A stretch of 64,000 nucleotides of DNA. Source: an uncultured delta proteobacterium (GTDB lineage: Bacteria; Myxococcota; Myxococcia; Myxococcales; Myxococcaceae). This document shows positions 28,165 to 30,437 of the stretch, one piece after another (within the stretch, counting starts at the first letter, position 1; each line of letters starts with the position of its first letter). The stretch is taken from assembly GCA_963776345.1 (NCBI GenBank), contig CAVZMH010000012.1, positions 64,001-128,000 of the forward strand, in the 5' to 3' direction. Under the pieces are notes generated by a model. It did not search any database. It had not been told where the DNA came from and worked only from the letters and a program-made list of their open reading frames with translations. The translations under genes were made by a program, and so were the position numbers.

Positions 28165-28213
28165 ATCGTCGTCGCTCCGCAGTCCAACGGAGAGACCGTT
28201 GCACGGAGAGACG

Positions 28214-29640
28214 ATGGACGCCGCACCGACACCGCTCGCTGTCTCCAGCCCCACCGGGGCCTCGCTCTGGTCCGAGCTCCGCGATGCGCTGCGCGGCACG
28301 CACCGCGACCTGACCGAGGCGCCGCTGGGGCGCGCCATCTTCGTCCTCGCCGTCCCCATGGTGCTGGAGATGGCCATGGAGTCGGTGTTCGCGGTGACCG
28401 ACGTGTTCTTCGTCGGCCGGCTCGGTGCGGATGCCGTCGCCACCGTCGGGCTCACCGAGACGATGGAGACGATGGTCTACGCGCTCGCCTTCGGGCTCTC
28501 CATCGGGGCCACGTCCCTGGTGGCGCGCCGGATGGGCGAGAAGGACGAGGAGGCCGCGGCACGCACCGCGGTGCAGGCCATCGGGCTCGGGCTGTTCTTC
28601 GGCGTCCCGCTCTCGGCTGCCGGGGCCCTGCTCGCGCCGACTCTGCTCCGGGCGATGGGCGGCTCGCCCTGGGTGCTGGAGCACGGCGTCCACTTCACCC
28701 GGGTGATGCTGGGGGCCAACGTCTCGGTCTGCTTGCTGTTCCTGATCAACGCCATCTTCCGCGGCGCGGGCGACGCCGCCACGGCGATGCGCGTGCTCTG
28801 GCTCGCCAACGGCATCAACATCGTGCTCGGGCCGTGCCTGGTGTTCGGGCTCGGGCCCTTCCCCCGGATGGGCGTGGTGGGCGCCGCGCTGGCCACCTCC
28901 ATCGGGCGGAGCACCGGGGTGCTCTACCAGCTGTATCGCCTGACCCGGGGCGACGGGCGGCTCACCGTCCGGATGCGGCACGTGCGGCTCGAGGCAGGGA
29001 CGATGCTCTCCGTCCTCCGGCTCTCGGGGGCGGGCACGCTCCAGACCGTGGTGGGGATGACCAGCTGGATCTTCCTGGTGCGGATCATCTCTCGCTTCGG
29101 GAGCCAGGCGGTGGCCGGCTACACCATCGCCATCCGGCTGGTGATCTTCGCCCTGCTCCCCTCGTTCGGCCTGGCCAACGCCGCGGCCACCTGGTGGGCC
29201 AGAACCTGGGGGCCAAGAAGCCGGACCGGGCCGAGCGTGCGGCCTGGAAGGCCGGCCACGTGGGCGCGGTCTTTCTGGGCACGGTCGGTCTGGTGTTCCT
29301 GGTCGCCGCCCCGCCCATCGTCGGCCTCTTCACCCGGGACCCGATGGTGCTGGAGCACGGCGTCCACGGGCTGCGGATCATCTCCGCCGGGTTCGCCTTC
29401 TATGCCTACGGCATGACCTTCACCCAGGCGCTCAACGGCGCCGGGGCGACCTGGGCGCCCACCTGGCTGAACGGCCTCTGCTTCTGGGCCTTCGAGCTGC
29501 CCCTGGCCTGGGTGCTCGCGGTCCGTGTCCACCTCGGGACCACCGGGGCGTACGTCGCCTGCCTCGCGGCCTGGACCCTGCTGGCCGTGGCCAGCGGCGC
29601 GGTCTTCCGGCGCGGCGCCTGGAAGCGGGTCGCGGTCTAG
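28214..29640 (+). CDS. MATE family efflux transporter, frameshifted near 29190
   Basis: LAVPMVLEM, D.FFVGRLG, FRGAGDA; GCC ACC TGG TGG restores to AATLVGQNLGA if one C is added; the C-terminal half lies in the 28834-29640 frame. Confidence 0.88.
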
Positions 29641-29654
29641 GCACCAGCGGCGGG

Positions 29655-29717
29655 GAAGAAAGAACCCGCCTCCCCGGTGGCCAGACACTGCGCCTCCAGC
29701 CACCAGGGGGCGGGCTT
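29655..29717 (-). terminator. Intrinsic terminator-like hairpin (minus strand)
   Basis: GCCCGCC-CCCTGGTGGCTGGA / TCTGGCCACCGGGG-A-GGCGGGT stem followed by TCTTTCTT; the G-U pairs form only on the minus strand. Confidence 0.7.
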
Positions 29718-29759
29718 GAAACCTGTGCGCCGCTCTCGTGCGCGCGGCCCTGCTTGGTC

Positions 29760-29804
29760 CTACGCCGCGCCCAGAGAGGCGACGCCTTGATTATGCTCGG
29801 TCAA
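29760..29804 (-). CDS. Putative 14-aa small ORF MTEHNQGVASLGAA
   Basis: AAAAGGAGGTGAT extended SD, 7 nt from AGGAGG to a TTG start, TAG stop. Confidence 0.4.
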   Translation of the reverse strand: MTEHNQGVASLGAA

Positions 29805-30029
29805 GGCATCACCTCCTTTTCGCCCCGCAGGGCGAAGCCGATCCTGTCGTCCCCCCGGCGGCGGCGCAACGTTTCTTGTGAGTGAGCATGGACGCGCGGC
29901 GCCGGTGCGCCGCTCCGCGGGCCTCCCCCCGGTGCGGGGGATTGCGCCCGGACCGCCGGAGCGGCAGAAGCGTCGAGCGCCTGCCCACCCCCCGGGGGAC
30001 GGGAGGAGGGCAGCGCCGAGGAGGAGCCG

Positions 30030-30437
30030 ATGGACCGCTGGACCACCGAGGTCACCCTGGAGGTGGCCTGGGGCGAGATGGACGCGCTCGGGCACGTGAA
30101 CAACGTCCGCTACATCGCCTGGGCCGAGACGGCGCGCATCGCCTTCTTCGAGAAGCTCGGGATGTCGACCCGCCCCACCGACCCCGTGGGGCCGATCCTC
30201 GCGCGCATCGAGTGCGACTACCTGGAGCCGGTGGAGTACCCGGCGCGAGTCACGGTGGGCATCCGGGCCGAGCGGGTGGGGAACACCAGCCTCTCGCTGG
30301 TGCACGAGGTGTGGCTCACCGGCGAGCCCCGCCGGGTGGTCGCCCGGGGACGGGCGGTGGTGGTCCTCATCAACTACGCCACGCAGGAGAAGGTCCGGGT
30401 CCCGGACTCCCTCCGCGCAGCGCTCGGCGCGAGCTGA
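30030..30437 (+). CDS. Acyl-CoA thioesterase (4HBT/YbgC hotdog fold)
   Basis: WGEMDALGHVNNVRY...ETAR; RBS GAGGAG. Confidence 0.9.
   Translation: MDRWTTEVTLEVAWGEMDALGHVNNVRYIAWAETARIAFFEKLGMSTRPTDPVGPILARIECDYLEPVEYPARVTVGIRAERVGNTSLSLVHEVWLTGEPRRVVARGRAVVVLINYATQEKVRVPDSLRAALGAS

Follow-up and report, generated by a model that had tools for sequence, protein, structure and literature searches.

The window analysed here, a 64,000-nucleotide stretch of genomic DNA, carries on its minus strand at 29834–29656 what is, judging by conservation and predicted folding, a real and conserved gene for a ribosome-directed mini-mRNA, lying between the convergent gene of a MATE transporter (end 29640) and a divergent thioesterase gene (start 30030). 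The reading we favour, to which we give a probability of roughly one half, is that the element is an rre-like mini-mRNA that engages the ribosome and changes fold, rather than one that supplies a functional peptide. Ribosome engagement is likely to be its job because the predicted fold hides the Shine-Dalgarno sequence (SD) until a ribosome opens it, and then latches the site open. All features of the element given below are on the minus strand.

Predicted promoter, transcript and terminator

In the alignment of the genus a −35 block is kept, followed by a variable 17-nt spacer, a kept −10 and a few variable bases, after which the sequence is near-invariant up to a U tail, a pattern that outlines a promoter and an RNA of about 180 nt. 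The predicted sigma70-type −35 hexamer TTGCGC (29864–29869) lies in a block kept in 13 of 13 genus copies, and the predicted −10 hexamer CAGGAT (29841–29846) is likewise called from conservation within the genus; the two stand 17 nt apart in 12/12 distinct copies, and transcription would start near 29834. The predicted stand-alone mini-mRNA (29656–29834) has at its 5′ end a hairpin (29836–29819) with the core GCCC-UGCG-GGGC and a UNCG-type loop, and at its 3′ end a predicted intrinsic terminator (29656–29714), with an interrupted stem of about 22 bp (29714–29665) and a U-rich tail. Both had been picked out in a preliminary description of this DNA and both are borne out by the sequence. Among the 88 distinct copies compared (see below) the terminator hairpin and its U-rich tail are present in 82, and a 5′ hairpin with the loop TGCG, TTCG or TACG is found in 37 and absent in 51. 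The promoter and terminator calls rest on conservation and folding, a simple consensus scan of 29400–30300 having called neither. The minus strand folds with a z-score of −5.2 (0 of 200 shuffles were as good), compared with −2.8 for the plus strand; this predicted fold and the conservation support the earlier proposal of a stand-alone structured transcript with a ribosome-directed 5′ part.

RNA-seq, taken from a relative only (locus L081, then the better-matching L082), gives modest support for transcription of the element. Depth in the raw run X22 rises in the usual-sense orientation from 28–37 upstream to 68–92 over the element, with 15–25 in the opposite orientation; it stays high through the next gene, and this run has no pile of read starts or ends at the element. 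An isolated 191-nt contig of X14 runs from the promoter region to the terminator, and a 368-nt contig of X13 ends at the terminator, with a depth of 92 compared with 11 in the body of the upstream gene. The raw runs X20 and X21 are near-flat on both strands and uninformative, X6, X7 and X11 gave contigs that cover the locus but do not resolve it, and the relative's runs do not indicate a high abundance of the RNA.

Two features of the surroundings may be recorded in their own right. Immediately upstream of the promoter, at 29880–29945 of the window, lies a GC-rich palindromic REP-like repeat with 38 blastn matches in the genome (E ≤ 1e-3), some of them in tandem, and with copies in most of the genus relatives. 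The MATE transporter gene (28199–29640, plus strand) is one base short near 29190 when compared with five of five relatives and is split across two frames there, which reflects either a true frameshift or an assembly error.

Distribution and sampling of the element

The element has the homologues to which the preliminary description had looked as a check: blastn finds it in 12 of 12 genus relatives, and its SD-start motif occurs exactly in 83 of 95 family genomes (one being a chance match in coding DNA) and with at most one mismatch in 130 of 140, mostly as a single copy, where both tallies include the unpublished genome G190 and the matches were inspected in part. The motif and the ORF also stand together in records named as Cystobacter fuscus, Archangium and Myxococcaceae, which suggests that the family in question is the Myxococcaceae. 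When the 5.1-Mb genome of the window was searched by blastn, a second copy of the element was absent among the matches listed, the additional matches being to the repeat upstream of the promoter. A covariance model, with the best 75 candidates per genome scored, found the element in 2 of 9 further, mostly motif-negative family genomes and in 0 of 37 genomes outside the family; as these include several sister families, the element is not universal. A looser motif gave no rre-like genes among 17 matches in five genomes of families f7 and f3, and none of 18 motif matches in viral contigs belongs to this myxobacterial RNA family. In 7 of these 18 (L263, L265, L268, L270, L271, L273 and L274) a strong SD and a GTG-started 3-codon ORF directly precede the same phage gene.

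The copies compared in the following come from 108 motif matches in the loci examined, 100 of which have a short ORF and reduce to 88 distinct copies. The eight dropped for having no stop within the stretch read (L023–L027, L060, L061 and L120) include all four matches of family f8 and one of the 83 exact-motif family genomes. The 88 copies are related and have only 15 distinct arms, so that counts among them overstate independence.

An extended Shine-Dalgarno and a frame without a conserved peptide

The extended SD, AAAGGAGGTGAT (29819–29808), is complementary over 12 contiguous nucleotides to the 3′ tail of the host 16S rRNA, as had been noted from the sequence, and the predicted duplex has an energy of −22 kcal/mol. 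This 12-mer occurs twice in the 5.1-Mb genome among the matches listed, once in the element and once at the 16S 3′ end itself. The complement spans 9–15 nt in the 88 copies, all measured against the 16S tail of the window genome, and the predicted duplexes range from −22 to −27 kcal/mol in the family. The TTG at 29804 opens 14 codons that run to a TAG at 29760 (MTEHNQGVASLGAA, 29760–29804), again as first described. Across the 88 copies the ORF has 14 (37 copies), 15 (24), 16 (26) or 19 codons (1); it starts with TTG in 82, GTG in 5 and ATG in 1, and is thus non-ATG in 87; and it ends in TGA (48), TAG (26) or TAA (14). A conserved core of the segment that pairs with the SD (the anti-SD core) lies 21, 24, 27 or 30 nt from the start and 18 or 21 nt from the stop, a multiple of three in 87 of the 87 copies with the core. 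In frame +2 the position of the stop is not fixed, and 35 of 88 copies have no stop in the stretch read. Because all three stops are used and the spacing of the core is always a multiple of three, this comparison points to probable selection for a ribosome that reads this frame as far as its stop.

While the frame is conserved, the peptide is not. Changes number 12 synonymous and 54 non-synonymous, a pN/pS of 1.5 from small, consensus-based counts, by which the peptide from the 14–19-codon ORF is under no purifying selection. This bears on the possibility that the RNA matters for its peptide, with the structure serving only to make synthesis of the peptide low or conditional. The strict keeping of frame and stop would fit such a role, as would the RreB and RreR peptides, which are reported to be conserved within their own clades (PMC5711450, main text). 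A loose T/A/I-S-A core also recurs among the peptides of the family, but it is the anti-SD that encodes these residues, and the C-termini comprise 26 different dipeptides; together with the pN/pS this leads us to regard a functional peptide as unlikely. The AA at the end of the window's peptide, which had been compared with ssrA/ClpXP degrons, closes only 13 of the 88 peptides, and with a sequence evolving in this way the comparison does not hold.

Two predicted alternative folds

Three strands of the RNA are central to its predicted folding. Strand A (29801–29816) consists of the SD, the spacer and the TTG; strand B (29775–29790), within the ORF, is complementary to the SD and the start; and strand C (29727–29748) lies past the stop. 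In the locked state A (29816–29801) pairs with B (29790–29775) in a predicted helix of 16 bp, including three G-U pairs, that buries GGAGGUG (probability of being unpaired below 0.1) and leaves only the two A's ahead of these bases mostly free. The SD had been described as exposed, in an unpaired AAGGAGGT, which the folding contradicts: the locked helix comes out of the predictions as the ground state for all 88 copies when the RNA is cut at the stop, and still for 85 of them with the next 45 nt included. For the window copy the predictions never put the open state lowest in energy, and only 3 of the 88 copies favour it. The pairs of a 10-bp hairpin said to bury the TTG are indeed predicted, but form only the inner part of the 16-bp helix, which buries GGAGGUG as well. 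A long hairpin said to hold the stop also exists, but its full form needs 29790–29775 and is thus an alternative to the SD helix; since both use this same strand, what had been described were parts of two alternative folds.

In an alignment of 43 copies the SD helix is paired in 300 of 301 cells (99.7%), compared with 45–66% when it is slid, and the changes in this alignment are of the G-C/G-U type only. The outer seven pairs are without a two-sided change; the inner part, which occurs in two registers, has one.

Opening of this helix is predicted to be met by strand C, the proximal half of which pairs with the end of the ORF in both states while the distal half can catch B. With the ribosome footprint held open, every one of the 88 copies is predicted to re-pair at least seven bases of the arm with its post-stop segment, and in 86 of 87 the arm pairs better with this segment of its own copy than with the segments of divergent clades (−16.1 vs −11.9 kcal/mol). 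Pairing of the arm alone is stronger than the mean of the shuffles for 85 of the 87 copies (median z −1.5, against +0.2 for a control promoter region), and reaches p ≤ 0.05 in just 28 of them; for the window copy p = 0.08. The computed median cost of opening is 10.3 kcal/mol, compared with 18.9 when the catch strand is shuffled and 19.3 when the RNA is cut at the stop, where the shuffle measures the size of the effect and not its significance, since the strand is chosen by its pairing. The window copy itself is predicted to open for 9.7 kcal/mol with the catch strand and 18.4 without, to be set against the −22 kcal/mol of the SD-16S duplex. Strands B and C also co-vary across clades.

A proposed mechanism and its alternatives

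A sigma70-type promoter would probably yield an RNA of about 180 nt that ends at its own terminator, as conservation and, weakly, the relative's RNA-seq suggest. As the RNA emerges, the SD and TTG would pair with the anti-SD inside the ORF, leaving by computation 2–5 free purines as a toehold. A 30S subunit may then nucleate at this toehold and, judging from the energies and from experiments on rreB, form a duplex of 12–14 bp with the 16S tail that displaces the anti-SD strand. The freed strand would be caught by the post-stop segment, which in our calculations halves the opening cost and would latch the site open, consistent with the co-variation of the two strands. The over-long SD and the TTG would be likely to slow initiation, after which the ribosome would read the 14 codons to the conserved stop, as the conservation of the frame indicates. 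By analogy with rreB, ribosome engagement would probably set the fold and lifetime of the RNA, so that it would gauge free 30S subunits or tether them.

A more specific version of this mechanism is possible, though we hold it only tentatively. The capture of one 30S could flip the latch into a long-lived open form that records or buffers the availability of free ribosomes, and this two-state design might run through rreB and the rre-like genes of many phyla. If it does, these genes would constitute a widespread but overlooked class of RNAs that sense translation, open to test in a myxobacterium amenable to genetics.

Binding of the ribosome could also be an end in itself, with the RNA serving to store or protect 30S as a decoy, or as a guard of the 16S 3′ end, for example in starvation. 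Such a role would agree with the SD-type complement, the longest in the genome among the matches listed, with the weak start codon, with the reported co-sedimentation of rreB and 30S (PMC5711450, main text) and with the predicted latch, which would prolong binding. However, there is mostly one gene copy per genome, the depth of the RNA in the relative is on the order of that of neighbouring mRNAs, and a 20-fold overproduction of rreB left growth unchanged, its authors arguing against simple sequestration (PMC5711450, main text); a decoy or guard thus seems improbable to us. We think still less of an action in trans, in which translation would unfold the RNA and free its anti-SD strand or 3′ part to pair, as in an sRNA, with target mRNAs. 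Pairing sRNAs of M. xanthus are reported to act near SD sites without Hfq (10.1101/2025.09.11.675593, available part), and no part of the ORF is better conserved than the anti-SD core, but both predicted states have strand B paired, and the sequence of the 3′ part is not kept from clade to clade.

The alternative pairing of A with B or of B with C is an attenuator-like arrangement, and the RNA might be a leader-peptide attenuator of the next gene. In the largest clade the flanks are an ABC transporter gene and a small gene followed by pyrG, the latter two next on the same strand, and the reads of the relative run on into them. In the genus of the window, however, the next gene downstream is convergent, and more generally the neighbours differ by clade, being the MATE and thioesterase genes in this genus and other genes elsewhere; moreover, strand C and the terminator stem do not overlap and a run of control codons is absent, all of which makes attenuation very unlikely. 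As a separate observation, the element and pyrG of the largest clade are separated by a small Cys-rich ORF that has no match in Pfam (L081:3859–4239, minus strand). SD sequestration relieved by refolding is also typical of type I toxin mRNAs, and co-transcriptional locking of the SD would fit one, but we give this reading very little credence, for the peptide is a short polar one that is not conserved, nearly all genomes of the family have the gene, mostly in one copy, and the relative's RNA-seq has no antisense depth step.

Comparison with known RNAs

Rfam has no gathering-level match in the window, and only chance-level ones in 29500–30100. Pxr sRNA (RF01812) resembles the element in its small size and structured nature and comes from the same bacterial order; it was rejected as a candidate, its covariance model having no match at the locus. 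A Pxr-like RNA is found elsewhere in the genome of the window (G000:C21:14849–14958, minus strand; L021), at 48 bits and below the cut-off of 80, as a diverged Pxr in an uncultured genus with a 5.1-Mb genome. A decoy for a GGA-binding protein, one of the functions first suggested, was likewise abandoned: the GGA motifs lie in stems or in a single internal loop, where an sRNA that sequesters CsrA/RsmA would be expected to show several of them in the loops of hairpins, and the 98%-complete genome has no match to the CsrA family (PF02599). We found no description of this myxobacterial RNA in the literature, where the survey of M. xanthus non-coding RNAs by Whitworth and Swain (2020) may list an orthologue.

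The element had been put forward as undescribed, but its layout is that of the mini-mRNAs rreB (Bradyrhizobiaceae) and rreR (Rhodobacterales), which are described by Hahn et al. (PMC5711450), and whose function these authors call elusive in the main text. According to the same text, rreB is an RNA of 165 nt with a 17-nt complement to 16S rRNA, a GTG start and 14 codons; its SD lies in a hairpin with a free seed of 5 nt, and it binds 30S and is weakly translated. Changing its start codon to a stop lengthens the half-life from 10 to 37 min, showing decay via the start codon. As far as this text describes them, the rre genes share with the element an extended complement to the 16S tail, 7 nt from AGGAGG to a non-ATG start and a 14-codon ORF, as well as a hairpin that holds the SD and start and leaves a few purines free as a toehold, which for the element is a prediction. 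They are stand-alone RNAs with an RpoD-like promoter and a terminator, to which the conserved motifs of the element and its predicted transcript would correspond (165–180 nt in all).

The differences are equally clear. Whereas rre genes in general are given as having at least 16 nt of perfect 16S complement (16–17 nt in rreB and rreR), a 14–18-codon ORF after a 7-nt spacer, and a GTG start (ATG in Azospirillum), the element has 12 nt (9–15 in its family) and TTG in 82 of 88 copies, with the spacer TGATGCC in place of TGATCCA; its ORF follows the extended SD after the same 7-nt spacer and has 14 codons in the window copy and 14–16 in 87 of 88. Its peptide is unrelated to RreB and RreR and is not clade-conserved, the similarity among the copies being confined to the paired strand, and the element belongs to another phylum. 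With only 12 nt of 16S complement and a TTG start it is, on these sequence features, better called a variant of the rre kind than a member, and its covariance model, which scores rreB-like loci only at E 0.16–0.62, does not show common descent with rreB.

A motif covering both types is held by an estimated 4,900 or so GTDB stretches (from 2 of 64 parts), and 116 of 120 sampled loci have an ORF of 11–29 codons; they come from Alphaproteobacteria, Planctomycetota, Acidobacteria, Burkholderiales, Gemmatimonadota and Myxococcaceae. Folding predicts the strand swap for 11 of 12 rreB-like, 21 of 53 CC2171-like and 13 of 29 rreR-like loci, the SD of rreR-like loci being predicted to pair mainly with the 3′ region instead. 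When 20 motif loci were compared with Rfam, two from Alphaproteobacteria exceeded the cut-off of CC2171 (RF01867) and three that of Ms_IGR-5 (RF02471), families listed as "sRNA"; rreB-like loci match these two below cut-off only. Since the rre SD-start motif is present together with a short ORF at loci L094, L123, L111, L122 and L208, CC2171 and Ms_IGR-5 themselves appear to be mini-mRNAs of the rreB class. CC2171 has been confirmed by Northern blot, with no function given in the available part of the report (10.1101/2022.01.24.477521). The element of the window has no match to either family at E ≤ 10, nor do the Myxococcaceae copies L095 and L116 at E ≤ 0.1. Further families of the phylum have other rre-type genes (L234, L235, L239, L240 and L241), with either a GTG start, 12–13 codons and a 16S-type spacer, or an ATG start, 19 codons and a terminator.

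Set beside these systems, the ribosome-engaging mini-mRNA that we propose overturns nothing known. It adds to the rre genes a near-universal and mostly single-copy version in the Myxococcaceae, home of a genetic model with a starvation-driven life cycle, and population-level evidence that the frame and the fold, not the peptide, are selected. It also points to a second, competing helix, which is absent from the main text of the rreB paper (PMC5711450) and which gives a precise mutational test.
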